A DNA stretch of 64,000 bases from Bacillota bacterium (GTDB lineage: Bacteria > Bacillota > Clostridia > Christensenellales > SZUA-584), in assembly GCA_023460085.1 (NCBI GenBank), contig JAEWRI010000022.1, positions 135,487 through 199,486 on the forward strand. The letters run 5' to 3'. Under the pieces are notes generated by a model that was given only the letters and a program-made list of their open reading frames with translations, was not told the origin of the DNA and ran no database searches. The translations under genes and the position numbers were made by a program. Below, in pieces: positions 9,498-57,643 of the stretch (position 1 is the first letter of the stretch; each line of letters opens with the position of its first letter).

Positions 9498-10010
9498 TTA
9501 CGCAGTCTGAGCCTTCATCCACCGGAAGAAATCCGGCGAAAGCGCCTCATAATAGGGCATGAGCCCTGCCGGCACCGTTTGCGCCATCAGCAGGCTGAAC
9601 TCACGGAGTTGCTTCATCTGCGCTTCGTCCAGCGTTTCCGCGAAAGCAAAGGCGCGAACCGCTTCGCAGGCTTCCTCCATGCGCTTTAAAAGCTCGCCCT
9701 GCTCCCTCGCAGATTTCGCGGAGGGCACGCTGTAATCCACCATCTGTTCGAGCGGATACTGCTTCGTGTCCATAAAGTCCCGAACGGCGCAATATTGAAA
9801 CGAAAATACCCTGCCGTGCTCGGAGGAAATGCTGGCCCACGCGTAAGGACGCACTCTCTTCGTGTTGAACGTATTGGGATAAAAGAATACGCGCTCCGTA
9901 CGCAATCCATTCTCCATGCACGGCACCGGCTGCGATACGGAATATCCGCCGCCTTCCAATGCGCGCACGCCCTTTGTCACTGCCGATTTGATATCCTGTA
10001 AACTTTTCAT
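9498..10010 (-). CDS. Hypothetical 171-aa protein, paralog of 15059..15499 (candidate partner/immunity-like protein of the upstream papain-like protein)
   Basis: ATG 10010 follows a GGGAGAA SD, 18 nt after the upstream stop. By-eye homology to the 147-aa ORF: VRPYAWASISSEHGRVFSF vs YRPCGMVGVPFGGTRILAY, and TVPAGLMPYYEALSPD vs MLPPGTRQFYQSIIPE. Confidence 0.6.
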   Translation of the reverse strand: MKSLQDIKSAVTKGVRALEGGGYSVSQPVPCMENGLRTERVFFYPNTFNTKRVRPYAWASISSEHGRVFSFQYCAVRDFMDTKQYPLEQMVDYSVPSAKSAREQGELLKRMEEACEAVRAFAFAETLDEAQMKQLREFSLLMAQTVPAGLMPYYEALSPDFFRWMKAQTA

Positions 10011-10027
10011 CTCATTCTCCCTTCCCG

Positions 10028-10759
10028 TCAAGCCGCGCGCGTGGCTTCGTCGGTTACGACCACGGAAGCCCCTGATATACTTGCATAGCATGCGTCCATC
10101 TCTTCCACGCTGACATAGCGGCAATTATCGCCATCCGCCCAGCGCCCGCTGTCGCAGATGTAGAACCCCGTTATCTCCCCTGTCTCGGCATCCCGAGCCG
10201 CGCTGGTAACCACAATCTGATGGTTTGCGCTGCCGTCATTGATATAATTTGCGTCGTTCCACAAGTAACCGGCGTTAACGCCCATCGTCACGCATTGACC
10301 ATTCTCCAGCGCCGCGGCGATATCCTCATATGTGCCGCCCGCCTCACCCGGATAATACGCCTGCGCGTCAATCCCGTAATGATCCAGCAGCGCGATAAGG
10401 TACTCGTCGTTGACTCCGCCCCTGGCTTCCGGCGGCAGCATGGGATCGTTATTGCACCAGCCATTGTCGATGGCCGTCTGCACAACATCGTCTTCCGTCG
10501 CGTCGATTCCCGAAAGCTGCAGAATATTGGACACGCTGACCAGCCCGCAGTCGCTCTGATACCCGTATGCGTTGTCACCCTGCTGGTAATCGAGCAGCGG
10601 CGCCACCGAGAACGGATCGCTCGTGGCGACCGATTCCCCGTTTTCATCGATAACCGGCTCGTACTGTTCCAGATCATTGGCCAGCTGCTCCGGGTGCTGT
10701 TCTCCAAACGCTTCTTCGATTCCGTCTCTCACAAGTTCAACCAGGCCCGGGATCTCCAT
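10028..10759 (-). CDS. Papain-fold (C39-like) cysteine peptidase-like protein, no signal peptide
   Basis: YQSDCGLVSVSNILQLSG (Cys71, codon 10547-10549), GSANHQIVV (His180) and FYICDSG (Asp203) give the Q..C / H / D order of C39-like peptidases. Acidic 60-aa N-terminus. AAGGAG SD. Confidence 0.6.
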   Translation of the reverse strand: MEIPGLVELVRDGIEEAFGEQHPEQLANDLEQYEPVIDENGESVATSDPFSVAPLLDYQQGDNAYGYQSDCGLVSVSNILQLSGIDATEDDVVQTAIDNGWCNNDPMLPPEARGGVNDEYLIALLDHYGIDAQAYYPGEAGGTYEDIAAALENGQCVTMGVNAGYLWNDANYINDGSANHQIVVTSAARDAETGEITGFYICDSGRWADGDNCRYVSVEEMDACYASISGASVVVTDEATRAA

Positions 10760-10815
10760 ACCGCTTCACTCCTTATGTTTGATATCGCCATTATAGCGCG
10801 TACTGCCGTCCCATT

Positions 10816-13800
10816 TTAAGACTTCTCCTTTTTTGCCGCCAAAGCCGCATTTTTAGCGGTGTATGCGTACCACCGATAATAGAACGCACGGATTTGTTTA
10901 TTGCCCGCTGCATAATACATCAATACCAGGCTTTCCATCGCGCGCACCGCAGCGGCATCCGCCGCGGCATATGCCGCGATGGCGGCATCCGCCGTTTCAT
11001 TCCAGGCGGCGATATTATCCATCGGAGTTTTGATAATCTCTGCGCCTTTGATCACCAGGTTAACGAGCCTGCACTGCGTACCGAAATCGTTCCACTCCTC
11101 AAGCACCGCGCTTTCACCGTATCGTTTGAGTACTGAAGCCAGCGCCGCGTCCTCCGGACTTCCGCTGGCAGAAAGAATATCCTGGCTGGCTTCCCGTATT
11201 TCCGTTGGAATTATCTCCGCCTTGGTGCGGTTGCAGAGCAGCACCTCCAGCGCTGTACCGCGCGCCCGCCGCAGGGTCTCACCGCTCGCCGCAGGCCGGT
11301 CATATACAAAAGGCGCGTATTTTTCCGGGGGATAATACTCTGCCATACAAAGCACCGGCGAAAGCCAATTTCCCTGATGAAACACCGCGACGCCGGTATC
11401 CAAGCGCGCAATCTCCCCAATCTGCTCCACACTCAAGCCCATCGCCTTGCCTACAGCGCGCCGGTCGTCCTCATCCGGCAGCTTGAACACCACTTTCGTA
11501 TTGGTATTGCGGATTACGGAGCGATCCATAACCGACGGAGACTGATCCGCTATGATAAAACTCTCGCCGTAGGTGCGCATCTCCGCGATGGCGTTGGTAA
11601 GTATCTCCACGGACATACCCTGAAGGTTTGCGCTTTCCATGGACTGCGCGCCGCTCACAGCTTTCAGCAGATGGTGCGCTTCCTCCAGAAGCGTAACATG
11701 GCGCAGACGGCTGTTGATCTCCTCGCAGCGTGTCACGCGATGCTCCTGCAGACGGATGATGAGCATGCCCATGATAAGCGACTTGGTCTCGGATGAGCCC
11801 AGACGGCTGATATCGATGATGGCGTTGCTGTCGAACAGCGCTTCATCCGACACCTCAGTGCGGCAGAACAGCTGTCCGCAGATACCGTTCGCCATCGACT
11901 TCACGCGCGTCACCAAAGCGCCGATATAGTTACCCTGAACCTCCGCCGAAAACTCCGTCTGTTTGAGAACACGTGGCAGCGTATCGGCCAGCGTCGCAAA
12001 CGTCGGGAAGCGCTCCGTCGGGTACCGGCAGATGCTCTCGTCCAGATCCCACCCGCATTCGCGGTACGAAAGCTCTATGGCCTCCTTCAGAAATTCCGGC
12101 ATCGCCGCGTACATCGGCCAGCTCGCGTTGAATACGCCCAGCAGCCGGTCGATATGCTCCAGCACGTGAATGCCCTTCGGGAAGGCAAACGGGTTGATGC
12201 CGAGCAGCGGAGATACCGCCTTGTTTGTGCCATACACGCGCACGTCTTCCCGTCCGCCGAATACGCGCGCATATTCGCCCTTAGCCGGTTCAATTACGAG
12301 AAACTTAATCCCGTTTTCCAGCAGGCGATTGAGCAGTACGTAGCACATATTGGATTTGCCTGATCCGGTGGTGCCCGTGATAAACATGTGTTTGCTGAGT
12401 TCATCGAGCGAAAGCTCCACCTCGAAGTCTTCTGTGTTGCCCATGTGCACGATACGGCCCACTTTGACGCCTGTCTGCACTGCGTCGTTCTTCTTGATGA
12501 TGTCCCTCGCAAACTCTGCGTGGGTATCCACCATCATGCCGGGCAGCGCCTTGCGGGGCCATGCCACGTGCACCGACATCTCCTGCGCGGTGGACAACGT
12601 GGCGGGCGTCACCTGCGGCAGCTCAAACCCGCCGCCGGAGAACGAAAACGCGGGATGCAGCATACGCTTTAAATATTCGGTCAGCGTGGAAACCGTCTGC
12701 GGTTCGTTCCATACGTTGATATATGATATGTTGGCGTCCGGTGAATACCCGGTGAGCAGCGATCGGTATATGCTTGCGCACATGCGGGCTGTGGCATTGT
12801 CCGCCGCGAGGATATACGCCGCACATTGGTACGCGCCGCCGCCCTCGCAGAGCTTGATTCTATCCAGCTGTACATCGATGGCCTTGAGGATATTGCCGAT
12901 AGCCTTGTTTTCGTAATGATACTGCACCGTAGAGCCTTTGGTCTGTGCGCTGCCTTCCGTGGTGCTGTTGGAACGTGCCGTGCTGTCGCTGGTGCCTCTG
13001 GAATCGCTCATTCCCTCCGATTCGCTCGTATCGTCGTGCGATGACGTGGTGCGGGATACGTTCGATTTTCCGCCCGCGAGCGTCTGATACGTTTTGGAAA
13101 CATTGTTGCCAAACGTGCTGACCACCAGCGGCCCAAAATTACCGATGCCCGGCAGAAACGCCGAACCCACCATGCCTGCCAGCGTTGCCGCTGTAATGAG
13201 TACTTCCGCCTTTTTGTTCTTGTCGGTATGCTCCTCTTTGGAGGTGGAATCGCTCGAAGAGGTACCGGTGCTGCGGGAACGGTTTGTGGTGGTGCCCGTA
13301 GTCAGCGACACCGACTGGGTTACCGTATCCCCCAGCGTTTTGGAGAAATTCAGCGTATCCGTCTCCGACAGCGACTGCTGAGATTTGTAGAACGGGGTGA
13401 GCTGGGTGTATAGTGTTTCATAGCCGCTCCGCATGCGCGCCAGCGTCTCATGCGCCACGGAGGACGCCAGCACCACCAATGCGAACGGCTGTCCGCGCAT
13501 GCCGTCCACCAGCTTTTCGATGCCCTGCAGATACACACCCCCCGCGTTATCCGCGCGCACGGAGGCCATACTGGAAACTGAAGCTACTGCCACCTCTCCG
13601 CTGTCAAACAGCGTATCCAGCAGCTTCTCGTTGTGCCTTGTAAATAGCTGCTCCGATTTACAGCCCGGAAAATGACCATCCACCGCGTGGCGCATCGTCT
13701 CAAACGCGTTGGTAAGCACCTGTGTATCCGTGCAGGCTGTGCCCATATACACGTCCGTCTTCACGCCATCGTGATGTACAATGAACACAGCGCTGCAGTC

Positions 13801-14097
13801 CACCGCGGAAACCGCACTGAAAACGCCGGACAGCTTGCTCAGCACATCCTCCCGGGAATCATAATTCAACGTAGAGAAATGAAGCAGGCGCACCCGGTCA
13901 CGAGGCTCCGCTGCAGCCAGCTCCTGCCGGGGCAGCGGTACTATCTGCGCATTCTCCAGTTGAGAAAGATACTGCATACGCACAAAGATATCCGCCATCC
14001 CGAGTGATTCCATCATACGCTGCTGAGATGGCGCAATGCGATTGTTGTTCTCCGTCACAGCCCTGCTCTTATACACATCGATTTCGTTGTCTTGCAT
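10816..14097 (-). CDS. HerA/FtsK-superfamily (DUF87-like) P-loop ATPase with a large novel N-terminal region and a hydrophobic segment
   Basis: Walker A GTTGSGKSN (12349-12375, verified on DNA). It is preceded by a HAS-barrel-like VKVGRIVHMGNTEDFEVELSLDEL and followed by LVIEPAKGEY. Walker B-like VTLLEEAHHLL. Hydrophobic AEVLITAATLAGMVGSAFLPGIGNFGPLVVSTFG (~13108-13209) is flanked by Ser/Thr-rich tracts. ATG 14097 follows a GGGAGGG SD (the ORF-track start 14148 overlaps the upstream gene). Confidence 0.75.
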   Translation of the reverse strand: MQDNEIDVYKSRAVTENNNRIAPSQQRMMESLGMADIFVRMQYLSQLENAQIVPLPRQELAAAEPRDRVRLLHFSTLNYDSREDVLSKLSGVFSAVSAVDCSAVFIVHHDGVKTDVYMGTACTDTQVLTNAFETMRHAVDGHFPGCKSEQLFTRHNEKLLDTLFDSGEVAVASVSSMASVRADNAGGVYLQGIEKLVDGMRGQPFALVVLASSVAHETLARMRSGYETLYTQLTPFYKSQQSLSETDTLNFSKTLGDTVTQSVSLTTGTTTNRSRSTGTSSSDSTSKEEHTDKNKKAEVLITAATLAGMVGSAFLPGIGNFGPLVVSTFGNNVSKTYQTLAGGKSNVSRTTSSHDDTSESEGMSDSRGTSDSTARSNSTTEGSAQTKGSTVQYHYENKAIGNILKAIDVQLDRIKLCEGGGAYQCAAYILAADNATARMCASIYRSLLTGYSPDANISYINVWNEPQTVSTLTEYLKRMLHPAFSFSGGGFELPQVTPATLSTAQEMSVHVAWPRKALPGMMVDTHAEFARDIIKKNDAVQTGVKVGRIVHMGNTEDFEVELSLDELSKHMFITGTTGSGKSNMCYVLLNRLLENGIKFLVIEPAKGEYARVFGGREDVRVYGTNKAVSPLLGINPFAFPKGIHVLEHIDRLLGVFNASWPMYAAMPEFLKEAIELSYRECGWDLDESICRYPTERFPTFATLADTLPRVLKQTEFSAEVQGNYIGALVTRVKSMANGICGQLFCRTEVSDEALFDSNAIIDISRLGSSETKSLIMGMLIIRLQEHRVTRCEEINSRLRHVTLLEEAHHLLKAVSGAQSMESANLQGMSVEILTNAIAEMRTYGESFIIADQSPSVMDRSVIRNTNTKVVFKLPDEDDRRAVGKAMGLSVEQIGEIARLDTGVAVFHQGNWLSPVLCMAEYYPPEKYAPFVYDRPAASGETLRRARGTALEVLLCNRTKAEIIPTEIREASQDILSASGSPEDAALASVLKRYGESAVLEEWNDFGTQCRLVNLVIKGAEIIKTPMDNIAAWNETADAAIAAYAAADAAAVRAMESLVLMYYAAGNKQIRAFYYRWYAYTAKNAALAAKKEKS

Positions 14098-14108
14098 GTT
14101 GCCCTCCC

Positions 14109-15062
14109 TTAAAGCAGGCTTTCCTGCAAATCCCAGATTTGATCGCATATCTGAAAGATATACGAGTCTTCATACCGGCTCTTGAGCTGGCCTGCGGCTT
14201 TCGCCATCTCTTCTACAACCCCGACTGCCTGTGACGGAAGATATACTTCGCTGACGTAACGGTCAAACGCCTGCAAAATGCCTTCGGCATCTGCCGCTAT
14301 CGCACAATCGGCGCAGAGCCTGAGCGGAATATCCAGCTGTTCCATGAGCGCCGAACACTTTGTCCGGTTCGCGTCCGTCCCGTCACCCACCAGGCACAAT
14401 AATATGAATAAATCCCCCGCGTCCCGCTCCGTTTCCATGGCCGACTGCAAATCGTCCTGCAAATCGCGTGGCAGCCTGGATGCATCCAATACAACAACGG
14501 ATATTCCCCGCCGATTCAAGGCTGCGCCTCGTTCCTTCAGAGATACGTCAAGGTCCTCAGGCATTCCAGCCATATCATGCAACGCTGTTGGGAATACGCT
14601 CATCCTGTCGCGGAGTTTTTTCAGTCCCTCGTACCCGTCGCCATCCAGGCGCTGTACAACCGTATCGATAAAATCATCCAGCACAGCACGGATATTCTTC
14701 ACCATTCCCCTGGGAGATTCCGGCAGGACATGACTTACCTGTGCGGAGGTCTCCATGCCGCGGCGCGCCAGCGATTCCTGCTGCGCCGCCATCACCTCGC
14801 GCAGCGTCTGAAAATCCCTTTCCCGCCCATGAAATGTAATGACAAAGGTATCGTCGTTCAGTTCGCGCACAAGCTCCGGAAGTATCCCCTGCCATTTCTG
14901 AAAACCCCGGCTGTAAGGATAAAGCCACTCATAGAAGTTTTTTCTGACAACGAAAGCGGTTAATCGGTTTTCGTTGCTCTCTACATTCATGCCGTCGATG
15001 ACGAGGCGCGTCAGCTGTCCTTCTCTCCGGAAGGGGCTTACGGTGATCTCTATCCGCTTCAT
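14109..15062 (-). CDS. Hypothetical 317-aa protein (no recognisable family)
   Basis: A long ORF in the operon frame with host-like codon usage. The start shares ATGA with the upstream stop. No motif recognised. Confidence 0.6.
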   Translation of the reverse strand: MKRIEITVSPFRREGQLTRLVIDGMNVESNENRLTAFVVRKNFYEWLYPYSRGFQKWQGILPELVRELNDDTFVITFHGRERDFQTLREVMAAQQESLARRGMETSAQVSHVLPESPRGMVKNIRAVLDDFIDTVVQRLDGDGYEGLKKLRDRMSVFPTALHDMAGMPEDLDVSLKERGAALNRRGISVVVLDASRLPRDLQDDLQSAMETERDAGDLFILLCLVGDGTDANRTKCSALMEQLDIPLRLCADCAIAADAEGILQAFDRYVSEVYLPSQAVGVVEEMAKAAGQLKSRYEDSYIFQICDQIWDLQESLL

Positions 15063-15499
15063 TTCAGTCCCGCCTTTTCAGGGATTATACTCTGGTAGAA
15101 TTGCCGGGTTCCCGGGGGCAGCATGTCCAGCAGCTGCAGCTGCAGCAATTCGCATTGCGCCGCATCCGCCGAATCCCAGGCCGCCAGACGGGAATAATAG
15201 TTGTCCATTCGCTGCGCATCTCCGGAATACAGCGGCGTATCGCTCCCTGTTTCGCTCTGCAGCCACTGGGCAGCGCTGTATGCCAGAATCCGTGTGCCGC
15301 CAAACGGTACGCCGACCATGCCGCAGGGACGATATCCGCCGTCCGGCAGCGGTTCGAAGAAAGGCAGCAGCAGCGCACGGTCTCCGCTCTTTATTACAGG
15401 GATAGGATATCCCATCACGGCAGCGGAAGGAAGCAGCAGGCATATCATGCGGGAATACCGGAGATCGTGAAGCCAGTTAAAAAACTCTTCGGTTTTCAC
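15059..15499 (-). CDS. Hypothetical 147-aa protein, paralog of 9498..10010
   Basis: GTG 15499 overlaps the upstream stop (GTGA) and follows a GGAGGT SD at 6-nt spacing. Homology to the 171-aa ORF is described there. Confidence 0.55.
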   Translation of the reverse strand: MKTEEFFNWLHDLRYSRMICLLLPSAAVMGYPIPVIKSGDRALLLPFFEPLPDGGYRPCGMVGVPFGGTRILAYSAAQWLQSETGSDTPLYSGDAQRMDNYYSRLAAWDSADAAQCELLQLQLLDMLPPGTRQFYQSIIPEKAGLK

Positions 15500-16116
15500 T
15501 TGTACACCTCCAGTATCCATCCGTTCTGCGAGATCATCGCAACCGCGTCCTTATTGAGCGATATCCATTGCCCGCCCTCCATGGAATGATCCGATACCAC
15601 AACCCCTTCTCTGTCGGCGGCAACCACTTGGACCGTGTGCAGCCCGGGGACCTCATAACCGGAATCATCCGGCTGCGCCGTCACCTGCCGCCAGAGCTGG
15701 TCGGGTACATAAGCCATCACCGATCCGTCGGCTCGCAGGCAGGCGGCGATGTTGGCCTCCGAAAAACGGGAAACCTGCACGTAGCATTCCTTTTCCAGCA
15801 GCTCCACAGCGTCCAGCATACCCGGCGCGGTATTCAAGCCTTCTGCCCACGCAAAGCCCGTCTGCTCAGTCATCACATCGCGCAGTGTCATGGATGCTGC
15901 CTCCGCCTGGCTTTCGGTAAACCGCCATGCCTCCGGCTGAATATCTGCCACGTCCTTCGGATCAAACCCTTCCATGGTCACGCGCAACACTTCCGGTTCT
16001 CCGGTTTCATTAACTCTCAGCACCTCAGAAGCAAACCGCGCTTTTTCTGAAACCTCATTTTGAATTCCGTCACGCGGCTCGAAACCCTTGCCCGGAATTT
16101 CATCAAACGGCGGCAC
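15496..16116 (-). CDS. Papain/C39-like paralog lacking the aligned nucleophile Cys (putative pseudo-peptidase)
   Basis: By eye it aligns with 10028..10759: ANIAACLRADGSVMAYVPDQLW vs EDIAAALENGQCVTMGVNAGYLW, and GLHTVQVV/VVVSDHS vs ANHQIVV/FYICDSG. Phe sits at the position aligned to Cys71, and there is no Cys in the first 112 residues. GTG 16116 follows a GGAGG SD at 8-nt spacing (ORF-track start 16125). Confidence 0.5.
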   Translation of the reverse strand: MPPFDEIPGKGFEPRDGIQNEVSEKARFASEVLRVNETGEPEVLRVTMEGFDPKDVADIQPEAWRFTESQAEAASMTLRDVMTEQTGFAWAEGLNTAPGMLDAVELLEKECYVQVSRFSEANIAACLRADGSVMAYVPDQLWRQVTAQPDDSGYEVPGLHTVQVVAADREGVVVSDHSMEGGQWISLNKDAVAMISQNGWILEVYK

Positions 16117-16825
16117 GGTCGTCACCTCCCGTCAGCATTCGCAACAGCACGGGATAGCCCGCCTTGCTTGCGAAAAGCGTTTTTCCGGATTTCAGTGTGA
16201 TCGCTTTGGTGCTTTTATCCACATGGGCGATATGCGACAGATTGACCAGATAGCTCTTATGGCAGCGGCAGAACACGCCCGATGGCAAGGTATGCTGCAC
16301 GTCGTCCAGCTTTGCGGTAAACGTCTGCGTCTGATTGTCGTTCATATGCACATGCACGATCCGGTAGTCGCTCTCAAAGTAGTCGATGTCCGCATAAGGC
16401 AGACGCAGTATCTCCGCCTTGGATTCATAGCTGAAGCAGGATTGCCCGCCTTCCATCCAAGATAAGGCTTTTCTCAGCGCATCGATGAAATTCTCGGCGC
16501 CGGCATCCCGCAGCACATAAGCAATGGGCAGCGTATAGAATGCCTGCAGCACCGTATCGTCCGATCCGTCGATATACACTATCGTGCAGTCCCGGTTATT
16601 CTCCCTCACCTTTTCTCCGATTGATAGCCCCTCGCCGTCCGCCGGGAGCACGAGCAGGTCGAGATTGTATTCCTCCTGCTCCAGCGCTTCCTCCAGTAGC
16701 CCTCTGCGCAGATAAGCCGTTATGATCGCGCGGTGATCCTGCTGAAACACCGTATCCGCGATGAGCCGCTGCAGGCTCTTGGCGGCTTCCAGCTCACGCA
16801 GGTATATGCAGATCCGTATCCTCAT
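16103..16825 (-). CDS. LytTR-family DNA-binding regulator with degenerate receiver-like N-terminal domain
   Basis: C-terminal LytTR motif (FCRCHKSYLVNLSHIAHVD). The N-terminal ~120 aa is receiver-like, but the expected phospho-acceptor region reads LDLLVLPADGEGLS with no Asp in the LLVLP stretch. No histidine kinase gene is nearby. Confidence 0.8.
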   Translation of the reverse strand: MRIRICIYLRELEAAKSLQRLIADTVFQQDHRAIITAYLRRGLLEEALEQEEYNLDLLVLPADGEGLSIGEKVRENNRDCTIVYIDGSDDTVLQAFYTLPIAYVLRDAGAENFIDALRKALSWMEGGQSCFSYESKAEILRLPYADIDYFESDYRIVHVHMNDNQTQTFTAKLDDVQHTLPSGVFCRCHKSYLVNLSHIAHVDKSTKAITLKSGKTLFASKAGYPVLLRMLTGGDDRAAV

Positions 16826-16859: not shown

Positions 16860-18878
16860 TTACGCGCGCGCCCCGGACAGTATAATTTGTACCTGCTGCG
16901 GAACGTCTGATATGTTCGCTGCAGCCTTCTCCAGGCTGGCTTTCCTGCGCGTTACTTCCTCTTCACCCTTGCGTTTTTCCTCCAGAATGCTCTGGATATC
17001 CGTCTCAATCTGTTTGATATCGGCAAACGCGCACTCACCCACGGTGTCCCTGAGGTCCTTTATCTTGCCGTTGATCTGGTTGAAGATTTTATCGTTGAGC
17101 TCCATGGTGCGCGCTGAATCGTTCAGCATCGTACGGTATTCCTTCGTCACCTTGTTGGTAATCGAATTCTGCAATTTGGAGAGCGTCCATCCGATTCCCA
17201 CCACAGTGGACAGCAGCGTACCCACCACAATGGCGCCAAGGCCGATGGGTGTAAAGCATGCCGCGATGCCCAGCGCGATTCCCGTTGCCAGCTGAAGCCC
17301 CAATGTGCGGAACATTGCTTCCTTGCCCAGCACACCGCCCACCAGCGCGGTCAGTATATCCCCCGTGAAAAGCGCGTAAACCACAGAGGCAACCTTTGTG
17401 GCATCGGAGGACAGTTTCTCCGTTTCCGCGCTGTGCCGGAAATTCAGGTCCACCTTGATATCCGTGATCACGCTGGAGAGCTCCGCCGCACGCGATTCCA
17501 GTTTTTTCGCCACGCCCTGTATCCCTTCGTTCAATTTTGGCAGCAGCGTTTCCTTCGTCCACTGTATCGAGAAGGTATTGAATTTATTCTGCAGATAGCT
17601 GCTGTATTCATCAGAAATCGCTTTCGCCGTGCGCTTCAAATGCATCAGTTCCGTCGTCACAGAGCATACGTACTCGCTTTGCCACTGATTCAGATTCTTG
17701 GCGGCTTCCGTGGTCAGCGTGCTGATGACAGGCTTAACGCCCTCCAGCGACTTGTCCAGCTCAATGTTAAATTCGCTGGCGAACAGCTCCGCCTTCTTTT
17801 TGGCCAGCTCCATCTTTTCGCTGACGCTGCTGATGCGCGCCTCAAACTCGGCCAGCGGGAGATCCACCGTATTCAAGTGCTCGCGTATGGTCTGCGCGCC
17901 TTCCCTGCTGATAATCTCCATCTGCGCGGCAATGGCGCTCAGTTTCTCATCGCCCTTGCACTTTACCAGAAATTCTTCCAGGTATTTCTCCATCTTCAGG
18001 TATCCGGACTCCAGCAGGAGTTCCTTGTTTTTGTCGCGCTTCGCCTTGATTGCCTGCAGCGAGGATACGAAGAATACGCCGTTTCCGCCCAGCTTCTCCG
18101 TATATTCAGGCTGCATCAGCCGAGTGCTCTTCTTCAGGTTGCGGTTGATGGTATCGATGGCTTCTTCCACATCCGCCGCCGAAGGCGATTCATCCTTGAT
18201 GTTATCGAAGCGGGTAACGACAAATATCGGCGTATTGTACCCACGCAGGTTGATATCGGCGATAGTATCCACATCCAGCTTCGTGTAGGGCTGCACTCCG
18301 TTCAGGCAATATATGATGGCATCCGCGGAGGGCAGGTATTCCAGCGTGATGGTATCGTGGCTGTTGGGGTCGTTGAGTCCCGGGGAATCCACTACCTCTA
18401 CGCCGTCCTTCAGCATTTCCAGCGGCCAGTATACCTCCATCTTTCTGAAAGGGGACTCAATGACGTTGCCTTCCTTGTAGTTCGCCGCGCCCTGCTTGTG
18501 ATCGATGAGGCAATAGTCGCGTATCCTGTCGATGGGCACGTCAAAAGGTTCGTCGCCACCTTCCCACTTGCCCGGCACGGGGTACACCACCACACGCTTG
18601 TCCTGCGCGTATTTGATCTCCGTGATCAGCGCGGTGGCAGGCATCACCTTGGTGGGGAGTATGGGTTCGCCTAAAAACGCATTAATCATAGAGGATTTTC
18701 CGGAGCTGAACTGCCCCATGATCAGTATGCGGAAAGTCTTGTCGGCGATCTTTTCCTTGCTGGTCATGATCATCTGGATCAGATCATCCCGTGTGCCCAC
18801 CGTATCGATAATTTGTTTTTGCATATCCAGCTGCCGGTCGATGGCTTCCGCAGCATTCTGGTAAGACTTGATATTCAT
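16860..18878 (-). CDS. Bacterial dynamin-like protein (DLP-3)
   Basis: G1 GQFSSGKSS (18693-18716), G3 DSPG and G4 TRFD. Long helical stalk. Gly/Ala-rich hydrophobic hairpin near the C-terminus (LGLQLATGIALGIAACFTPIGLGAIVVGTLLSTVVGIGW). Confidence 0.85.
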   Translation of the reverse strand: MNIKSYQNAAEAIDRQLDMQKQIIDTVGTRDDLIQMIMTSKEKIADKTFRILIMGQFSSGKSSMINAFLGEPILPTKVMPATALITEIKYAQDKRVVVYPVPGKWEGGDEPFDVPIDRIRDYCLIDHKQGAANYKEGNVIESPFRKMEVYWPLEMLKDGVEVVDSPGLNDPNSHDTITLEYLPSADAIIYCLNGVQPYTKLDVDTIADINLRGYNTPIFVVTRFDNIKDESPSAADVEEAIDTINRNLKKSTRLMQPEYTEKLGGNGVFFVSSLQAIKAKRDKNKELLLESGYLKMEKYLEEFLVKCKGDEKLSAIAAQMEIISREGAQTIREHLNTVDLPLAEFEARISSVSEKMELAKKKAELFASEFNIELDKSLEGVKPVISTLTTEAAKNLNQWQSEYVCSVTTELMHLKRTAKAISDEYSSYLQNKFNTFSIQWTKETLLPKLNEGIQGVAKKLESRAAELSSVITDIKVDLNFRHSAETEKLSSDATKVASVVYALFTGDILTALVGGVLGKEAMFRTLGLQLATGIALGIAACFTPIGLGAIVVGTLLSTVVGIGWTLSKLQNSITNKVTKEYRTMLNDSARTMELNDKIFNQINGKIKDLRDTVGECAFADIKQIETDIQSILEEKRKGEEEVTRRKASLEKAAANISDVPQQVQIILSGARA

Positions 18879-18918: not shown

Positions 18919-20478
18919 TTATTCCTCCGCCATGAACTCGTTCAGTATCGCGTCGCACTCCATTGCCAGCACGGAATAGCGTTTAAATGCTTCTCCCATT
19001 TTTCTTTCCTCTTCGCCCTCACCGCTGCCCTTCTGGACGCTTGCGGCCAGCTGCGCATCCTTAACTGCCAGCAGCAGCGAAGCATAGATATAGTCCACAT
19101 TCTTTGAGAACGCTTCGAAGTTACTGCCCACGCATTTGACAACATACCGGCGGACTTCCGCTTCCAGCTCCTTCATTCTGTCCTTGTTGTTGCCATGCTC
19201 GACAATGGACCAAAAACCGGTGGCGACGGTAGCGCCTCCCGCCAGCATAGTTGCCGAGAAAATCGCGATGCCGTTGATGATGAAAACCGGCGCGAAAAGT
19301 ATGCTGGCTGCCAGCGCGGCAGAGGAGAACACCAACCCGGTGAACGCCATACGCTTCATCTTCTCGGGGTCGCTGCTCTTTGGCTCCGGCGCTCCGGGGC
19401 TGCCGAACGCGGATGCTTCGTAACCCGGCAATGTGTTCAGTTTCACACCAAATGCCTGCTCGACGTCCGATATCAGCGTTTTACGGTCTTCAACGATCCG
19501 TTCGCTGAGGGCACGGTTGACGCTGCCTGAAATCTTCTGCAGCTCCACCGCCATGTCGTGTTCCAGCTGCCGGTTCCACCAGTCCTTTTTCGAAGACGCC
19601 AGCGACATCTTCATTACCAGACTGTCACCTATCTCCGCTACGGCCTTCTCCCGGATCCGGTTGATCTCAGCCAGCGCTTCGTTATTTTTTTTCTTGACGC
19701 GCAGCTCGATTTCCTGCCATTGCGTTTCATTGATTTGCGCGCGCACCTTTCCGCTCTCACGGGTTTTAGCACAATCATTCAGCGCCTGCTTTGCCTGCTG
19801 CTGCAAGGCGGAAATACGGTTCTTTACCGCCGAGGCGAACCCCATGCAAAGCAGCATCTCTTTAACATCTTCCACGCTTTCGTGCGCACAGAGCATGCTG
19901 AGCAGTGCCTTGCCCATGCCCTTGTCGTCCTTGCGAATCAGCGCCAGTTCGTCGGTACCGAAGAGCGCGCTCAGCTGCGTCTTTACGTAATCCTCTGCTT
20001 CCGCCTTATCTTCGTCATTCAGCAGCTCCATTTTATTGAGGGCAATGGTGCAAGGGATACCATAGGTAATGCAAGTGCGTATAGCGGCGACATCTCTCGC
20101 GGAAAGCGGAGCGGCGGCGGACAGCAGGAACAATGCCGCGTCTACCCCCCAAAGCACACAGTCGGCGTCTCCCGGCTGTATGTTTTCATACTCCTCAATG
20201 GCGATCTCCGCGCAGGTAATCTCTGTGCCGGGAACTTCCGCTGAAAGCTTGGAATCATGCGTGGACGATACCATTGATACCGGCATTGTCGCGCTGCCCA
20301 AAATCATATTTGCCACTGTGCTTTTTCCGGAGTTGGTATCGCCCAGCACCGCAAATACTTTGCCATGCTTGCACCGGACTTCGTCGCGTTTTCCGTTGTA
20401 TCGACTCGCAATATCCCCGCTGCCAATCTCCGCGGCAAGCGACGTCAGTTTGCTGAACATATCCTCAGGTATTAACAT
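18919..20478 (-). CDS. Dynamin-like GTPase with divergent G3 motif (DLP-2)
   Basis: G1 GDTNSGKST (20320-20343) and an NKME G4-like motif. The expected DxxG position reads VDAAL. C-terminal hydrophobic hairpin (LVFSSAALAASILFAPVFIINGIAIFSATMLAGGATVATGFW). The start overlaps the DLP-1 stop (ATGTTAA). Confidence 0.7.
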   Translation of the reverse strand: MLIPEDMFSKLTSLAAEIGSGDIASRYNGKRDEVRCKHGKVFAVLGDTNSGKSTVANMILGSATMPVSMVSSTHDSKLSAEVPGTEITCAEIAIEEYENIQPGDADCVLWGVDAALFLLSAAAPLSARDVAAIRTCITYGIPCTIALNKMELLNDEDKAEAEDYVKTQLSALFGTDELALIRKDDKGMGKALLSMLCAHESVEDVKEMLLCMGFASAVKNRISALQQQAKQALNDCAKTRESGKVRAQINETQWQEIELRVKKKNNEALAEINRIREKAVAEIGDSLVMKMSLASSKKDWWNRQLEHDMAVELQKISGSVNRALSERIVEDRKTLISDVEQAFGVKLNTLPGYEASAFGSPGAPEPKSSDPEKMKRMAFTGLVFSSAALAASILFAPVFIINGIAIFSATMLAGGATVATGFWSIVEHGNNKDRMKELEAEVRRYVVKCVGSNFEAFSKNVDYIYASLLLAVKDAQLAASVQKGSGEGEEERKMGEAFKRYSVLAMECDAILNEFMAEE

Positions 20479-22343
20479 GCCAATTCTCTCCTTACTGAAA
20501 ACAGTTTTAAATTCTGTATCTGCTCTTCTATTTCCTTCGTATAACGGCCGTTATCCGCTATTTCGCGGTTCAGCCGCATCTTCTTTTCTTCATACATCTT
20601 CAGCGCGTCATTGTACAGCTGCGAATAGATAGCCATATAGTGTCTTGACATCTCTTCCAGTCGCGTGATGCTCTTATCAATGCATTGCACCGTCATAGGT
20701 ATACACTCGCCGGATATTCTATCCGAGATCGTGGGCAGCTGCAAACGTACTTGCTGTACAAAATCTGCCCGCGCCTTTTTCATAAACAGTTTGTCCTTGC
20801 CGAGGTACCCGACGATTCCCCCCACAACCGCGCCTATCGGCCCTCCCAATATCAGGCCGATGGCCGCTGCGCCCCCGCTTGTCAGCACGGTATTCTGCGT
20901 TTCTACTTTTGCGTAGCTTTCACGCACCTGCGCCAGCGAGCTCCCAATCTTCTCTTGGAGGGGTTGAGTCATCGCCGAGGACGCCGCATTCTGAAGCAGC
21001 GCCGCGTTGCCAATGCGTCCATAGCAGGTTTCCAGTTCCCGCTGCATATGATCCCCTGTCCAGTTTACCAGACCTTGCGCAGAGTCTGCCACCTGCTGGC
21101 TGTATCGATAGTACGCGGGCGTCTGATTGGCAATATCGCCTGCAAGACCGTCCGTCCGCGAGGCGTATACTTTAAAATCGGCATGGCTGCTGAACGCGGA
21201 GACACGGTATTCCACCGCCTGCAGCATATAGCTCTCCATCTCTCTCCGTGTCACTCGTTCATTTTCCTTATATACGCCGCGCATTTCCCACAGCCGGTTG
21301 CTCTCCTGTACCTTAATGTCGGCCAGCTTTTTGGCCAGCTGCGGCGGCGCGTTTTCTTCCAGCACCTTAAGGCTGGACTGAAGCGCCTGCGTCTGCTGCG
21401 CAACGCCATCCTTCATCACACCCAGCATCTGTCTCAGCAGCTCTGCCATACGGCAGCTCAGTATGAACTCCCGCTGCTCCCGCAGATGCGTAAAAAGTGC
21501 CTCCCGCAGTGCGTTCAACCTGCGCGCCCACACTTCGTCCTTGCCCGCAAGATACGCCGAGCAGGAAACCAGCAGCGGATCCCGAATTCCCAGCTTTTCC
21601 TGTATATTTTCTCGAACGTACTGCTCCAGTTCTTCCCGCTCGTCCTCCTCCACCCTGTCCATCATAGTGAGCACAAACACCGCATGGTTCATAAACCTTT
21701 CGGCGTTTTCCTTCAGAAACAGTTCAAAGCTGTATGTATAAGCCTGCGTAGCGGGAAAAAGGATGATTACAGAGTCCGCCGCATGTTCAAGCACCTGCTT
21801 GGTGCGCGTTACATGCAGCTCGGAATTCTCCTGACCGGGATTGACTCCGGGGGTATCGATAATGCACAGATTGCCCAGCGCGCCGCTGTCCGGCAGGAGC
21901 ACATCCACCCGCGCGGTGCGGTGCGCTACGGATTCACGAGTAGTTACTGTATTGAGGTTTTCCTTAAAATCACTGCCAAGTGTGATATTGCACACTTCGC
22001 AAAAGGACTGCGCCTCCTGCGCATCATTCAAGTGATACCGCTTTCCGTCGTTGAGTTCAATATGCAGTTCGGCGGTTTCATAAGGCCCGCCTTGAATGTA
22101 CGTGGGAATTGCCGTGGTTGCCATGATTCCGGTTTTCAGACAGTCATATCCGCAGAGCGCGTTGATCAGCGTGCTTTTTCCCGAGCTGAAGTCGCCAATA
22201 ACCGCCAGCTTCAGCGTGGTATCCGCATGCTTTTCCGCGATATCATTTCTTTGCTTTTTCAGTTCTGCCAGCGTGTCTGCCCGCCATGGAAACTCTGTAA
22301 AAAGGCGGCCGGCATACTGTATACTGCGCTCGATTTGATTCAT
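20472..22343 (-). CDS. Bacterial dynamin-like protein (DLP-1)
   Basis: G1 GDFSSGKST (22173-22196, verified on DNA), G3 DTPG and a G4-like TMMD. Helical stalk. Gly-rich hydrophobic segment GGAAAIGLILGGPIGAVVGGIVGYLG. Confidence 0.85.
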   Translation of the reverse strand: MNQIERSIQYAGRLFTEFPWRADTLAELKKQRNDIAEKHADTTLKLAVIGDFSSGKSTLINALCGYDCLKTGIMATTAIPTYIQGGPYETAELHIELNDGKRYHLNDAQEAQSFCEVCNITLGSDFKENLNTVTTRESVAHRTARVDVLLPDSGALGNLCIIDTPGVNPGQENSELHVTRTKQVLEHAADSVIILFPATQAYTYSFELFLKENAERFMNHAVFVLTMMDRVEEDEREELEQYVRENIQEKLGIRDPLLVSCSAYLAGKDEVWARRLNALREALFTHLREQREFILSCRMAELLRQMLGVMKDGVAQQTQALQSSLKVLEENAPPQLAKKLADIKVQESNRLWEMRGVYKENERVTRREMESYMLQAVEYRVSAFSSHADFKVYASRTDGLAGDIANQTPAYYRYSQQVADSAQGLVNWTGDHMQRELETCYGRIGNAALLQNAASSAMTQPLQEKIGSSLAQVRESYAKVETQNTVLTSGGAAAIGLILGGPIGAVVGGIVGYLGKDKLFMKKARADFVQQVRLQLPTISDRISGECIPMTVQCIDKSITRLEEMSRHYMAIYSQLYNDALKMYEEKKMRLNREIADNGRYTKEIEEQIQNLKLFSVRRELAC

Positions 22344-43815: not shown

Positions 43816-44574
43816 TTAACCCTCCCATTTATAACCCATAGTGGTTATAGTTTGCTTTCCTGCTTTGCCATCAACCTTAATCTTCTTAGCTTTCTGAAAA
43901 GCTAAAACTCCTGCTTCTGTCTTACTGCCAAAAATACCATCTTCAGCACCGCAACTATACCCAAGCTTATTTAGGGTTTTTTGAAGCAATCTAATATCTT
44001 CACCTTCCATCTGTGGTGAAAGCTTCTTCAATACTCGATTAAAGATAACTGCGGCAGTAGCTTCAATTTCATCTTTAAAGTAAGTTGGTCTGCCGTAAGT
44101 GTTCCAGCCGCCTTGACTTAAAGGACGTTTTACAACACCATAGGCACTACCCCTAGCTTCAATTACATTTAAAGCATCGTCAACCACATAACCAATATGA
44201 TAGGCTTTACCCTTCTTAGTGCCGGTCTTATAGGTTTTAAATACCCAATCACCTTTCTTTAGTTCTGCCTTAGAAAGAATTGTGCATTTACCTTTAAGGC
44301 CGTTTGCGTTCATATCAACCTTGATAATACCTAGCTTCTGCAAGCTGTAGATACCCAAGCCGCTACAATCAAAGGCTTTTAACATCTCACCAAAACCAGC
44401 TTCAACTTGTTTCTTCCAATAAGCTACAGCACTGTTGCCGGTTGAAGTGGTCTTAGCACATTTCTTAATCCAAGCTTCTGTAATAGTTGGTTTTGTTTGG
44501 CCTTGTGCACCCCAAACATAGATAGAATGGTTTTTTACTTCCAGTTCTAATAGTTCAATAAATTCTTTTAACAT
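43816..44574 (-). CDS. Endolysin: NlpC/P60-type cysteine peptidase + PG_binding_1 domain
   Basis: AFDCSGLGIYSL catalytic Cys motif and a His in GKAYHIGYVV. C-terminal LQKTLNKLGYSCGAEDGIFGSKTEAGVLAFQKA peptidoglycan-binding repeat. Confidence 0.85.
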   Translation of the reverse strand: MLKEFIELLELEVKNHSIYVWGAQGQTKPTITEAWIKKCAKTTSTGNSAVAYWKKQVEAGFGEMLKAFDCSGLGIYSLQKLGIIKVDMNANGLKGKCTILSKAELKKGDWVFKTYKTGTKKGKAYHIGYVVDDALNVIEARGSAYGVVKRPLSQGGWNTYGRPTYFKDEIEATAAVIFNRVLKKLSPQMEGEDIRLLQKTLNKLGYSCGAEDGIFGSKTEAGVLAFQKAKKIKVDGKAGKQTITTMGYKWEG

Positions 44575-55542: not shown

Positions 55543-56358
55543 TTATAGTTCTACCACTGGTGCATAGCAACAGCGGCAGTTAGGATGAACCGGCAGTTGT
55601 GGTTCAGTTCCAAGCAAATAAATACCGCCATTTGCGGCGGCGTTTGCTTCACATTCATCACATAAATCTTCATCATCTTCTGGAATGTATTCTACTTCTT
55701 TCACACCTGCTAGTTTGTAACTGGTTATGCTTGCTGTGTTGTAAGCATAACTGGCTTCAGTTCTTACCAGCCTATCAGCCACACTATAGCCAACGTTCAT
55801 ATCAGCCATTATCTGTGCCTTTATTTGGTCTGGCATCTTACCCAAAGTAATCATATCTTCAATGTGCTTGTTCAGTTGGCTTGCTAGATGGTTAGTGTTA
55901 TCCCACACTCTGTTACTATAATTTTTTCCACTCCAAGCACTATTGAGATATTGTGTAGTTTGGGTATTTCTTAGAAAAGTAAATATTCTATCATCTGGGT
56001 ATAGTTCTTTTAATGTTGTTTCTAGCGTGTTGTTAAATACTTTACTTATTACTTCATCCATTATGGTTAGTTGTCTGTTTCCAACACCAGTTAGTTCTTG
56101 CTGTATAATATCTCGCAGTTGCGTATATTTTGAATACTGCCATAACTGCGTTCTGGTTAAGGTTTCAGCACCGGCACTATTGATTTGTGCGAATAGAGAA
56201 TTAATTTGAGTGTCTATTTTTCGGTAGGTCTGCTGATATAGACGTTCCTGCTTCTTAGAATAGTTGGCGGCTAGGCGTTGTGCTTTTTCCTCACTCTGTC
56301 TAGTGCGTTCACTCCAATACTGGTTCTTCTGTTCCTTGTCCATCTTCTTCACCAGCAA
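55543..56358 (-). CDS. Head morphogenesis / minor capsid protein (SPP1 gp7 / Mu F-like)
   Basis: C-terminal VHPNCRCCYAPV motif. It follows the portal gene with an overlap. Confidence 0.8.
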   Translation of the reverse strand: MLVKKMDKEQKNQYWSERTRQSEEKAQRLAANYSKKQERLYQQTYRKIDTQINSLFAQINSAGAETLTRTQLWQYSKYTQLRDIIQQELTGVGNRQLTIMDEVISKVFNNTLETTLKELYPDDRIFTFLRNTQTTQYLNSAWSGKNYSNRVWDNTNHLASQLNKHIEDMITLGKMPDQIKAQIMADMNVGYSVADRLVRTEASYAYNTASITSYKLAGVKEVEYIPEDDEDLCDECEANAAANGGIYLLGTEPQLPVHPNCRCCYAPVVEL

Positions 56359-57643
56359 AATCTATTGAGTAACCAGCCGCTTCTTCTTCCTCTATTCGTT
56401 TCTTTTCTGCTTCATAATCAACATCAATAGGCAGTAGGCCAACCTGTGTTTCTTTGCTTAATAGGTGTCCAACCTTATTCACTACATCAGCCATTTCAAC
56501 TAAGTTAGCTGGTATGTTACGCTTGAATGTTAGGTTGATTGCACGATAGTCATATTCAGAACCCATAATAGAAAGCATATTGCAGATAAGTTCAATGCGG
56601 CGTTGTAGGCCTTTTTTAAAGCTACGTTCCTTTTTAGAAGTGGTGTTTTCTAACCCCATCAGCTTATACTTCATAGCAACACCAGAAGCATTTGCCGCAA
56701 AGTTTTCATCAGTCATTGGCGGCGTTTTGCTGAACTTGTGAATATCACTATCTATGCGGTTCTTTAGGTTCTCAACATAGGTATCATTAATGGTCTTTAT
56801 TAGCCACTGTGCGGCAGAACCTTCTGGAAGGGTAATTACTCTGTTTTCCTTCATGTTGGCTACATCATCTGCTTCTAAGCCATCAACACCAGTTAAGGCC
56901 AAATAAGCATCTGCAAAGTATTCCATATCATTAACGCTATCACTTTGTATTTTGTCGTAAGCGTCAATAAGGGGAATTACTGTTTCATAATCACCTAATT
57001 CTTCTTCATTATTGCAGTAAACAATAATAGGAACTGCGTTAAACTGGTGTTGCTGTTCATCAAGCAACAGCATACCGGCTATACTCTTTTCCCATTGCTG
57101 AATATAGGTTTTACTGTAGACTTCAACAAAGGTTTTAGTGTTGCCAGTCAGAATATCCTTTTCATCATAGTAGCGGATAAAGAAAAGTAAATCTTCTTCA
57201 ACCGTATTATCATAGACAGGAATACAGCCTTCAGCACTAACCTTCTTAAAGCGAATATCCGCATTATCATCTAAGTAAAGAAGTTCATAGGCTGTACCAT
57301 AGATAGAAGCATCTTTAGCCAGTTCTGAATTCTCTGCGGCTTCATCATTGTAGTTATAGATAGCAGTTAAGGAATTAAGCAACTCTATTTCTTCACTGTT
57401 GTAGCTTACAGGTTCACCCATGAAATAGCCAACCATAATGTCAGTTATGTAGTTGGCATAAGGGTTAACTACCTTGTTGTTTGGCTTAGTAGCGTCTACC
57501 ATAGTGCGGCTTAGAATAGCTTGATTTCCTATGTAGTAATCAGCTAACTTCTTTCTATTTGCGGCTTCACCAGCGTTATCTTCTATATACTTCAGAATTA
57601 GTTCTGGTGTAAGCACGCTATCTTTCTTTAATCTGTATTTCAT
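56309..57643 (-). CDS. Portal protein (SPP1 gp6-like)
   Basis: 444 aa, immediately after the large terminase. Conserved portal core and an acidic C-terminus. Confidence 0.9.
   Translation of the reverse strand: MKYRLKKDSVLTPELILKYIEDNAGEAANRKKLADYYIGNQAILSRTMVDATKPNNKVVNPYANYITDIMVGYFMGEPVSYNSEEIELLNSLTAIYNYNDEAAENSELAKDASIYGTAYELLYLDDNADIRFKKVSAEGCIPVYDNTVEEDLLFFIRYYDEKDILTGNTKTFVEVYSKTYIQQWEKSIAGMLLLDEQQHQFNAVPIIVYCNNEEELGDYETVIPLIDAYDKIQSDSVNDMEYFADAYLALTGVDGLEADDVANMKENRVITLPEGSAAQWLIKTINDTYVENLKNRIDSDIHKFSKTPPMTDENFAANASGVAMKYKLMGLENTTSKKERSFKKGLQRRIELICNMLSIMGSEYDYRAINLTFKRNIPANLVEMADVVNKVGHLLSKETQVGLLPIDVDYEAEKKRIEEEEAAGYSIDFAGEEDGQGTEEPVLE

Follow-up and report, generated by a model that had tools for sequence, protein, structure and literature searches.

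Cpe1-Cpi1 of Escherichia coli (PDB 9L5U; PMC12136450) and StbD-CT/StbI of Citrobacter rodentium (PDB 8SSK/8SSM; bioRxiv 10.64898/2026.05.07.723447) are pairs of a C39 protease toxin and its immunity protein. In the staphopain-staphostatin pairs (ScpA/ScpB and SspB/SspC; PDB 1PXV and 1Y4H), the gene for a papain-like protease is followed by a co-transcribed gene for a dedicated inhibitor, which protects the producer. Dead proteases may also be employed; the CspC pseudoprotease of Clostridioides difficile is a sensor (PMC6636752). Here I describe a 64,000-nucleotide stretch of DNA from a Bacillota bacterium (Clostridia, Christensenellales, SZUA-584; assembly GCA_023460085.1, contig JAEWRI010000022.1, positions 135,487 to 199,486 of the forward strand), hereafter called the window. 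A tightly packed operon of the window contains two modules, each made of a large gene and a small gene. Module A encodes a predicted protease (protease A; 243 amino acid residues (aa), 10028-10759) and partner A (170 aa, 9498-10010). Module B encodes a putative pseudo-protease (206 aa, 15496-16116) and partner B (146 aa, 15059-15499). The two modules are probably diverged copies of one ancestral unit, a papain/C39-like protease plus a small partner, and the preferred reading of module B is that of a duplicate without catalytic activity.

Like Cpe1 and StbD-CT, protease A is predicted to combine a papain/C39-like fold and a Cys-His-Asp set with a small cognate gene immediately downstream. A cytoplasmic site of action, predicted for protease A, is also shared. 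However, Cpe1 and StbD-CT are domains of about 140 aa that end delivery proteins of type VI secretion systems (T6SSs) or of contact-dependent inhibition (CDI), whereas protease A is a standalone protein with an acidic disordered N-terminus, extra helices, and no delivery domain. Unlike Cpi1 and StbI, partner A has no sequence relation to any PDB chain, and its pair sits in an operon with dynamin and ATPase genes. In Tox-PLC39 and related papain-like domains of polymorphic toxin systems, a C39-like peptidase is employed as the toxin and immunity genes are found nearby (Zhang et al. 2012, PMC3482391). These domains were described at the C-termini of RHS, T6SS, or Photorhabdus virulence cassette toxins, while the context of a nucleoside triphosphatase (NTPase) operon is not in PMC3482391. 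The reuse of such domains in large secreted proteins resembles the giant RTX proteins described below. The C39 peptidase domains of the ABC transporters PCAT1, ComA, and LahT150 are the best structural matches of protease A. Unlike them, protease A is not fused to an ABC transporter, has no double-glycine leader substrate nearby, and has a sub-cut-off Pfam score. Both staphopain-staphostatin structures are also among the fold matches of protease A. Staphopains are secreted zymogens with propeptides, whereas protease A has no signal peptide. Staphostatins are beta-barrels of about 110 aa, while partner A has 170 aa, a C-terminal half predicted to be helical, and no sequence relation to them.

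The C39-like domain of HlyB (3ZUA) has the C39 fold and has kept a binding role after the loss of its Cys; it reportedly binds its substrate without cutting it. The pseudo-protease of module B differs from this domain in being encoded by a separate gene and in having a partner of its own and a LytTR neighbour. The dead paralogues CspC and CspA sense or regulate the pathway of the active enzyme in a Clostridia lineage (PMC6636752, PMC7200643), as is proposed for module B. However, CspC and CspA are subtilisin-like, work in spore germination, and have no partner protein or LytTR, while the pseudo-protease is predicted to be papain-like.

The dynamin-like genes of the operon match the PADLOC models of the anti-phage system Eleos (LeoA/LeoBC). 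However, Eleos consists of dynamin-like genes only. The operon has seven further conserved genes, and the NCBIfam model DLP_LeoA_gen gave 29 bits against a cut-off of 325; the identification of the locus as Eleos was thus rejected. It was also rejected as a type VII secretion system, since no WXG100 or EssC gene was found in the window. Among HerA-containing defence systems, none is known to combine dynamins with a papain-like protease and a partner, and no description of an operon of dynamin, HerA/DUF87, and protease genes was found in the literature. In summary, a C39-like protease with a cognate neutralizer and a pseudo-protease paralogue are known kinds of elements, while no earlier description seems to exist of the family of partners, of a dead module coupled to LytTR, or of the host dynamin/HerA operon.

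Protease A Is Predicted to Have an Intact Catalytic Site

A database search with protease A gave 59 homologues, and 40 of these were aligned. Gln60, Cys71, His180, and Asp203 are invariant in this alignment, down to 30% identity. A first-pass annotation, made from the letters of the window and a list of its open reading frames (ORFs), had located QSDCG (Cys71), NHQIVV (His180), and ICDSG (Asp203) in the 243-aa product, and these assignments are exact. An AlphaFold2 model based on the 40-homologue alignment was obtained with high confidence (predicted local distance difference test (pLDDT) 87.6, predicted template modelling score (pTM) 0.82). In this model, helix 71-82 begins at Cys71 and strand 180-190 begins at His180, while the N-terminal region of about 35 aa is acidic and disordered. 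A Foldseek search of the PDB matched the model with a probability of 1.00 to LahT150 (6mpz, E 4e-5), PCAT1, ComA, Alr0975 (phytochelatin-synthase-like), cathepsins, and staphopains with staphostatins. The C39 toxin StbD-CT of C. rodentium was matched both alone and with its immunity protein (8ssk/8ssm), as was 9L5U, an entry titled 'papain-like cysteine protease toxin/immunity pair' (E 5e-4 to 1e-3 for these toxin structures). The inactive C39-like domain of HlyB (3zua) was found among the matches, too. Thus, the papain-like fold on which the first-pass annotation had depended is confidently modelled, and protease A is predicted to be a papain/C39-like cysteine protease (clan CA) whose catalytic site is intact.

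Pfam Peptidase_C39_2 (PF13529) gave 17.6 bits (E 0.0061), under the 24-bit cut-off, for protease A itself, and a precomputed PF13529 match is present in 14 of the 59 homologues. When PDB sequences were searched with the protease A profile, the only hint was an alignment with cathepsin S (E 0.93). In protease A and its relatives, no signal peptide and no LXG, WXG, PAAR, RHS, or CDI delivery domain was found. A bacteriocin-processing C39 peptidase sensu stricto was ruled out, because the gene stands alone in an operon with no ABC transporter and no leader-peptide gene of the double-glycine kind.

The protease domain was also found inside RTX-repeat proteins of 1,250-2,024 aa from Pseudomonas, Variovorax, Sulfuricella, and a gammaproteobacterial metagenome-assembled genome (loci L011, L017, L020, L023-L026, and L029, near locus position 10001-10540), with the Cys, His, and Asp residues intact. 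No partner gene was found near these embedded domains. Thus, a partner may not be needed for catalysis. The N-termini of the other homologues are diverse. In the homologue of L028 (9563-10615), an extended series of (Y/H)EGT repeats precedes the catalytic domain, while in others the N-terminus is unrelated, varies in length, and is acidic or of low complexity. The RTX protein of L011 has a GHSLGG lipase motif at its N-terminus.

A Family of Small Partner Proteins

To the 26 genome loci found via the protease alignment, 14 were added via individual proteins (the L numbers refer to these loci). A hidden Markov model (HMM) of partner A was used to search these 40 related loci. They contain 27 standalone protease genes, and for 24 of these the next gene downstream encodes a partner A homologue. 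The three exceptions are a gene at a contig end (L016), one on a 3.3-kb contig (L030), and the second protease copy in L012. In the nearest relative, L005, the protease-partner pair is tandemly duplicated; the two proteases are 71% identical to each other and the two partners 81%. Murimonas intestini (L001) has a partner that is a fusion of two partner domains. Across 20 loci, the mean pairwise identity is 26% for the partner vs 39% for the protease, and in 98% of locus pairs it is the partner that has the lower identity. The divergence of the protease correlates with that of the partner at r = 0.88, compared with 0.79 for the protease and the ATPase. A profile of 20 partners matched no Pfam family and no meaningful PDB relative, designed helical proteins being the only matches.

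It had been claimed in the first-pass annotation that the small proteins of the two modules are paralogous, with lengths of 171 and 147 aa; these agree with 170 and 146 aa if the stop codon is counted. A BLASTP comparison of partner A with partner B was not significant (E 0.22). A word-indexed homologue search provided five close relatives each for the 206-aa and the 146-aa proteins of module B. When the two partner families were compared by hhalign, the probability was 90.4% (E 1.4e-6), then 94.2%, and then 95.1% (E 3.2e-8); the rise came with partner B sequences from added loci. The alignment extends over about 120 columns and takes in the RP...G.R(I/V) and P.G..(F/Y)Y motifs noticed in the first pass. 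Its score of 51.3 compares with 16.9 +/- 3.5 in block shuffles, and none of 200 shuffles reached it. In an HMM search of the 3,554 ORFs of all loci, the top non-family matches of each partner HMM were the other partner families. For partner B, all of the top-10 non-family matches were partner A proteins or partner S2 proteins, the latter being encoded next to another protease described below. These profile comparisons indicate, beyond chance, that partner A and partner B are true paralogues.

A Probable Degenerate Protease in Module B

The gene for the 206-aa protein has a GTG start codon with the Shine-Dalgarno sequence GGGAGGTG, and its product is the same as a 206-aa database protein (P0060). 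The strings ANIAACLRADGSVMAYVPDQLW, LHTVQVV, and VVVSDHS, on which the first-pass annotation aligned this protein with protease A, are present in the product. By BLASTP, the two proteins matched with E 0.1-1.9, and hhalign of the two large-protein families gave 0.7% when the 206-aa protein was represented by its five close homologues. An exhaustive profile search, which was required to get to 19 relatives, enlarged this family to 23 sequences in all (alignment A4), and the direct comparison with the protease family then gave 1.8%, P 0.027 (range 0.7-1.8%, P 0.027-0.046). The score was reached by 4 of 60 column shuffles. The 114-column alignment reproduced the register proposed in the first pass, with ANIAACL... 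on EDIAAAL..., His on His, and Asp on Asp. Thus, the register stood, while the similarity of the two large-protein families is, judged by direct profile comparison, not significant.

The link was found in a second, divergent protease gene of relatives, designated C39b (247-259 aa; L003, L007, and L039). C39b keeps the Gln, the Cys (T/A-C-Q), the His (NH), and the Asp (ND), and its gene is followed by that of partner S2 (154-156 aa) and then by a LytTR gene. By hhalign, C39b matches the protease A family at 97% (E 2.4e-11 to 1.1e-10), and the C39b of L039 has a weak Pfam match to Peptidase_C39_2. The pseudo-protease family matches C39b over 127 columns at 46% (E 2.1e-4), and this probability grew with added sequences from 2% to 20% and then to 46%. 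The score at an earlier stage was reached by none of 60 column shuffles and by 1 of 240 block shuffles. When the pseudo-protease HMM was run over the 3,554 ORFs, the three C39b proteins ranked 1, 2, and 4 among the non-family matches. Since they are related to each other, these ranks count as roughly one event (P about 1e-3). Because the direct comparison fails and C39b links both families, the homology of the large proteins is credible only through this intermediate family.

The AlphaFold2 model of the 206-aa protein, based on five close sequences only, has a pLDDT of 49, with values of 64-77 over the C-terminal half. All of the final eight secondary-structure elements (H, E, H, E, E, E, H, E) have counterparts of the same type in the 243-aa model, in the same order and register. 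A Foldseek search with this model gave weak matches (best E 0.026). Almost all of them are papain-like proteins, namely AziU2-U3, a C39-like peptidase of Bacillus anthracis, ComA, LahT150, Alr0975, GtgE, CtaG, cathepsins, and papain, and they overlap with the match list of the 243-aa protein. No Pfam peptidase family matched any of the 23 members, and a PDB sequence search with profiles from shallow and deep alignments found no peptidase. On balance, the 206-aa protein is likely to be a papain-like paralogue that has degenerated.

Active-site positions are given here as residues of the 206-aa protein; in the 23-member alignment, which counts 209 aa, every number is higher by three. Thr77, not the Phe proposed in the first pass, aligns with the Cys of C39b, and this column never holds a Cys in the 23 sequences. 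The His and the Asp were said to be kept. This is true for the 206-aa protein; in the family, Asp176 is invariant, while the column of His160 has a His in the closest relatives only and an Arg in most others. The first Cys is residue 111, not 113 as had been counted. As a substitute nucleophile, Cys111 was ruled out by poor conservation, being present in only about 14 of the 23 members. Cys126, found in at least 90% of them, was ruled out by its alignment with a non-catalytic helix of the protease. The alignment thus shows that the catalytic Cys and, in most members, also the His have been lost in the pseudo-protease family. The C-termini of all 23 members read (L/V/A)E(V/I)(Y/F)(K/V), almost always LEVYK (encoded at 15496-15510 in the window), which is a new, strongly conserved C-terminal feature. 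Cys126 and Asp176 are likewise counted among the conserved features that module B has gained.

Linkage of the Second Module to a LytTR Gene

The gene for a LytTR-type DNA-binding regulator (240 aa, 16103-16825; Pfam LytTR E 2.6e-19) overlaps with the start of the pseudo-protease gene, and module B is predicted to be coupled to it translationally. The regulator has no Response_reg match in Pfam, and no histidine kinase is encoded in the operon. The GTG start codon of the partner B gene in turn overlaps with the stop codon of the pseudo-protease gene as GTGA, and partner B is thereby predicted to be translationally coupled to the pseudo-protease. Nine independent contigs include the upstream side of module B (L005, L031/32, L033/34, L036, L037/38, L040, and the window). 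The order in every one of them is LytTR, pseudo-protease, and partner B, and the genes overlap or abut there. Where the contig continues past module B, a gene of the 317-aa family and then the ATPase gene follow. The C39b-S2 module of L003, L007, and L039 likewise abuts a LytTR gene. Thus, a LytTR-linked second module exists in active-type and dead versions. The first pass missed both the constant tie of module B to a LytTR gene and the presence of an active-type protease in this second position in relatives.

The Operon and Its Relatives

All of the genes of interest lie on the minus strand. The first three genes in the order of transcription encode dynamin-like GTPases of 623 aa (20472-22343), 519 aa (18919-20478), and 672 aa (16860-18878). 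They were recognized by Pfam Dynamin_N (E 2.7e-26 and 4e-21) and by the PADLOC models LeoA (E 4.5e-22) and LeoBC (E 1.9e-15), and each of the three bears a hydrophobic or glycine-zipper segment. The LytTR gene and module B follow, and then come a 317-aa protein to which no function was assigned (14109-15062), a HerA/FtsK-type P-loop ATPase of 1,110 aa (10816-14148), and module A. The two modules therefore flank the 317-aa ORF and the ATPase gene, as noted in the first pass. The ATPase matches Pfam DUF87 (E 5.7e-14; 53.2 bits, above the cut-off of 23.2) and the HerA and mad8 models of PADLOC (E 1e-17 to 1e-18), and the scores of the named NCBIfam equivalogs (HerA, CedD, and TraD) are all far under their cut-offs. 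Its long N-terminal region includes a Ser/Thr-rich stretch and a hydrophobic segment. At residues of about 260-420, the Ser/Thr-rich low-complexity stretch is broken by the hydrophobic Gly-rich segment AEVLITAATLAGMVGSAFLPGIGNFGPLVVSTFG, and the ATPase matches part of the NCBIfam 'serine-rich protein' model NF033849 with a score under the threshold.

None of the 206-, 146-, 317-, and 170-aa proteins was matched by Pfam, NCBIfam, or PADLOC. The gene limits of the first pass agree with the start codons and the ribosome-binding sites; the partner A gene, for example, starts with MKSLQ behind a GGGAG ribosome-binding site (gggaagggag). A promoter-like site was found 5′ of the first dynamin gene, at 22430-22402(-). 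Another one, TTAAAA-18-TATAAT at 10819-10790(-), is situated in the 56 nt that separate the stop codon of the ATPase gene from the start codon of the protease gene and is a consensus match only. Module A might thus also be transcribed separately.

Among the related loci, 21 independent ones have the ATPase together with the protease module, and an iterative HMM search found the 317-aa family directly before the ATPase in 12 loci, which are Firmicutes loci. The full ten-gene layout (three dynamins, LytTR, pseudo-protease, partner B, 317-aa protein, ATPase, protease, and partner A) is found in the window, L005, L033, and L040. L001, L006, and L012 have this layout minus module B and LytTR, and in L004, L008, L009, and L028 the dynamins are missing, too. 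In L003, L007, and L039, the order is ATPase, protease, partner A, C39b, S2, and LytTR, with WXG100 and Hsp70-like genes upstream. In L010, L015, L019, L021, L022, and L027, protease and partner A are followed by a gene, two dynamins, another gene, and the ATPase; the hosts of this architecture are Planctomycetota, Acidobacteriota, Actinomycetota, and others. L013 and L014 have the protease-partner pair without NTPases. Thus, the whole unit belongs to a dynamin/HerA-type ATPase system present across phyla, which was missed in the first pass. A scan of viral contigs gave no relatives.

Compared with L005, the dynamin and the ATPase are each 85% identical, followed by LytTR (74%), protease (70-79%), partner A (about 71%), pseudo-protease (65%), 317-aa protein (57%), and partner B (56%). 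These identities suggest a slow NTPase engine with fast-evolving peripheral parts, a pattern typical of conflict systems.

Various accessory genes were seen by the module in relatives. NACHT and protein kinase genes lie in L001 (11947-14814) and L004 (11617-15806), radical SAM enzyme genes adjoin the module in L004 (in the same region) and L009 (11650-12774), and ADP-ribosylglycohydrolase genes adjoin it in L003 (11855-12751) and L028 (11200-12069). An SNF2 helicase is also among the accessory neighbours. The dynamin-less loci L039 (1884-6262), L003, and L007, called type II relatives, have two WXG100 genes upstream of the DUF87 ATPase gene, together with genes for a TPR protein and a 1,023-aa Hsp70/actin-like protein. 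They also encode, between the ATPase and the protease, a protein of about 205-215 aa with an N-terminal hydrophobic segment.

Elsewhere in the window, the GC content drops from about 0.52-0.60 to 0.31-0.38 at 43000-64000, where a siphovirus-type prophage lies on the minus strand. Its genes include those for the large terminase (57654-58886), an SPP1-type portal protein (56309-57643), Dit, tail proteins, a Gp37-like baseplate protein, a tail-repeat protein, and an endolysin with NlpC/P60 and PG_binding domains (43816-44574). No tRNA gene was found in the 64-kb window.

Interpretation

The first-pass annotation offered an active enzyme/pseudo-enzyme pair as one reading of the two modules. The active half is borne out by the modelled fold and the Gln-Cys-His-Asp set of protease A. 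For the other half, module B is read as a dead duplicate because the partner paralogy is strong, the homology of the large proteins being moderate and indirect. It is proposed that module A is the probable effector arm of a membrane-associated system made of the dynamin-like GTPases, the 317-aa protein, and the HerA/FtsK-type ATPase. Partner A would bind the protease one-to-one and keep it harmless in the producing cell, as modelled on Cpi1/Cpe1, StbI/StbD-CT, and staphostatin/staphopain, and the NTPase machinery would release or position the protease on a trigger. Module B may have a non-catalytic role in which it serves as a sensor, a decoy, or an anti-regulator, so that LytTR and, through it, the operon would be under its control; this role is modelled on the CspC pseudoprotease and the Cys-less domain of HlyB. 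I infer that the partners are inhibitors, that module B is a regulator, and that the system works in biological conflict. The evolutionary and structural part of this picture, two diverged copies of one ancestral protease-partner unit, is quite probable, while the regulatory role of module B is tentative and rather doubtful. Taken as a whole, the picture could equally well prove right or wrong.

Several observations speak against it. The two large families fail to match directly, and the model of the 206-aa protein is of low confidence and gives weak fold matches. Partner A has no likeness to any known immunity protein or inhibitor, and its adjacency to and co-evolution with the protease equally fit an adaptor or a substrate. 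PADLOC did not recognize the locus as a defence system, matching only its generic HerA, LeoA, and LeoBC models, and the genes flanking the operon in the window are metabolic. The WXG100 genes of some relatives hint at a secretion-like variant.

Three other explanations were weighed. If module A were an interbacterial toxin-immunity pair, the ATPase, possibly with the dynamins remodelling membranes or vesicles, would export the protease, and partner A would protect the producer and its kin. Genuine C39 toxins together with immunity proteins (8ssm, 9l5u; PMC12136450) are indeed among the closest fold matches, the protease domain is also found in secreted RTX giants, and the two WXG100 genes of the type II relatives would fit export. 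The tandem pairs of L005 resemble toxin-immunity arrays, and L013 and L014 hold the pair without NTPases. The absence of relatives on viral contigs neither supports nor contradicts this explanation. However, it does not account for a dead duplicate that is linked to a transcription factor. Neither an EssC-type ATPase nor further secretion components were found, and the window has no WXG100 gene. In the 243-aa protein and in its relatives, a signal peptide and a recognizable delivery domain (LXG, WXG, PAAR, RHS, or CDI) are both lacking. This makes it less likely that the locus is a classical toxin-immunity cassette for export, and I regard the explanation as improbable. It is also unlikely, for other reasons, that the partners are adaptors, chaperones, or substrates which dock the protease or pseudo-protease on the ATPase/dynamin machine, with the protease maturing or recycling its components. 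Adjacency, translational coupling, and correlated divergence fit any obligate complex, and the Cys-less domain of HlyB (3zua), which is said to bind its substrate uncut, is a precedent. Because the dead protease still has its own partner, a partner may do more than block catalysis. On the other hand, the RTX-embedded domains have no partner, so the partner would not be a general cofactor; the pair persists in L013 and L014, where the machine is absent; and the partner is the faster-evolving member, as is typical of neutralizers in conflict systems.

The remaining explanation restricts the paralogy to the small proteins. The 206-aa protein would then have an unrelated fold, its gene would merely happen to precede that of partner B, and its resemblance to protease A would be due to chance. 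The failure of the direct profile comparison (0.7-1.8%, with 4 of 60 shuffles reaching the score), the lack of peptidase matches in Pfam and in the PDB sequence search for the 23-member family, and the low-confidence model would all be expected in that case. Against chance stand the link to C39b, which grew from 2% to 46% (E 2.1e-4) and whose score at an earlier stage was reached by only 1 of 240 block shuffles, and the ranks of the C39b proteins among the 3,554 ORFs. One register was obtained in every independent alignment, with 8 of 8 secondary-structure elements in order, and the Foldseek matches are mostly papain-like, several PDB entries being common to the 243-aa model. In addition, a true protease occupies the equivalent LytTR-linked position in relatives. 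A chance resemblance thus seems unlikely, and the reading of module B as a degenerate duplicate of a protease-partner unit is preferred.

On this preferred reading, a bolder proposal may be made, although the chance that it holds in full is small. The locus would represent an undescribed conflict system across phyla, probably for anti-phage defence or abortive infection, in which the NTPases are a membrane-associated sensor-motor, the cytoplasmic C39-like protease is an effector restrained by its own inhibitor from a new family, and the dead LytTR-linked module is a decoy or sensor switch for the expression of the system. It is a similarly speculative part of this proposal that LytTR works independently of phosphorylation and that module B was rewired in one clostridial lineage.

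These results define a widespread, unannotated family of standalone C39-like proteases and a new family of obligate partners. As the active copy, an intermediate active paralogue, and the dead paralogue occupy equivalent operon positions, the route from an enzyme to a pseudo-enzyme is testable in this family. A protease effector with its inhibitor would provide an experimental entry to the bacterial dynamins, whose function is a long-standing question. Receiver-less LytTR regulators are poorly understood, and a module that controls one of them through protein-protein contacts would be a useful precedent.

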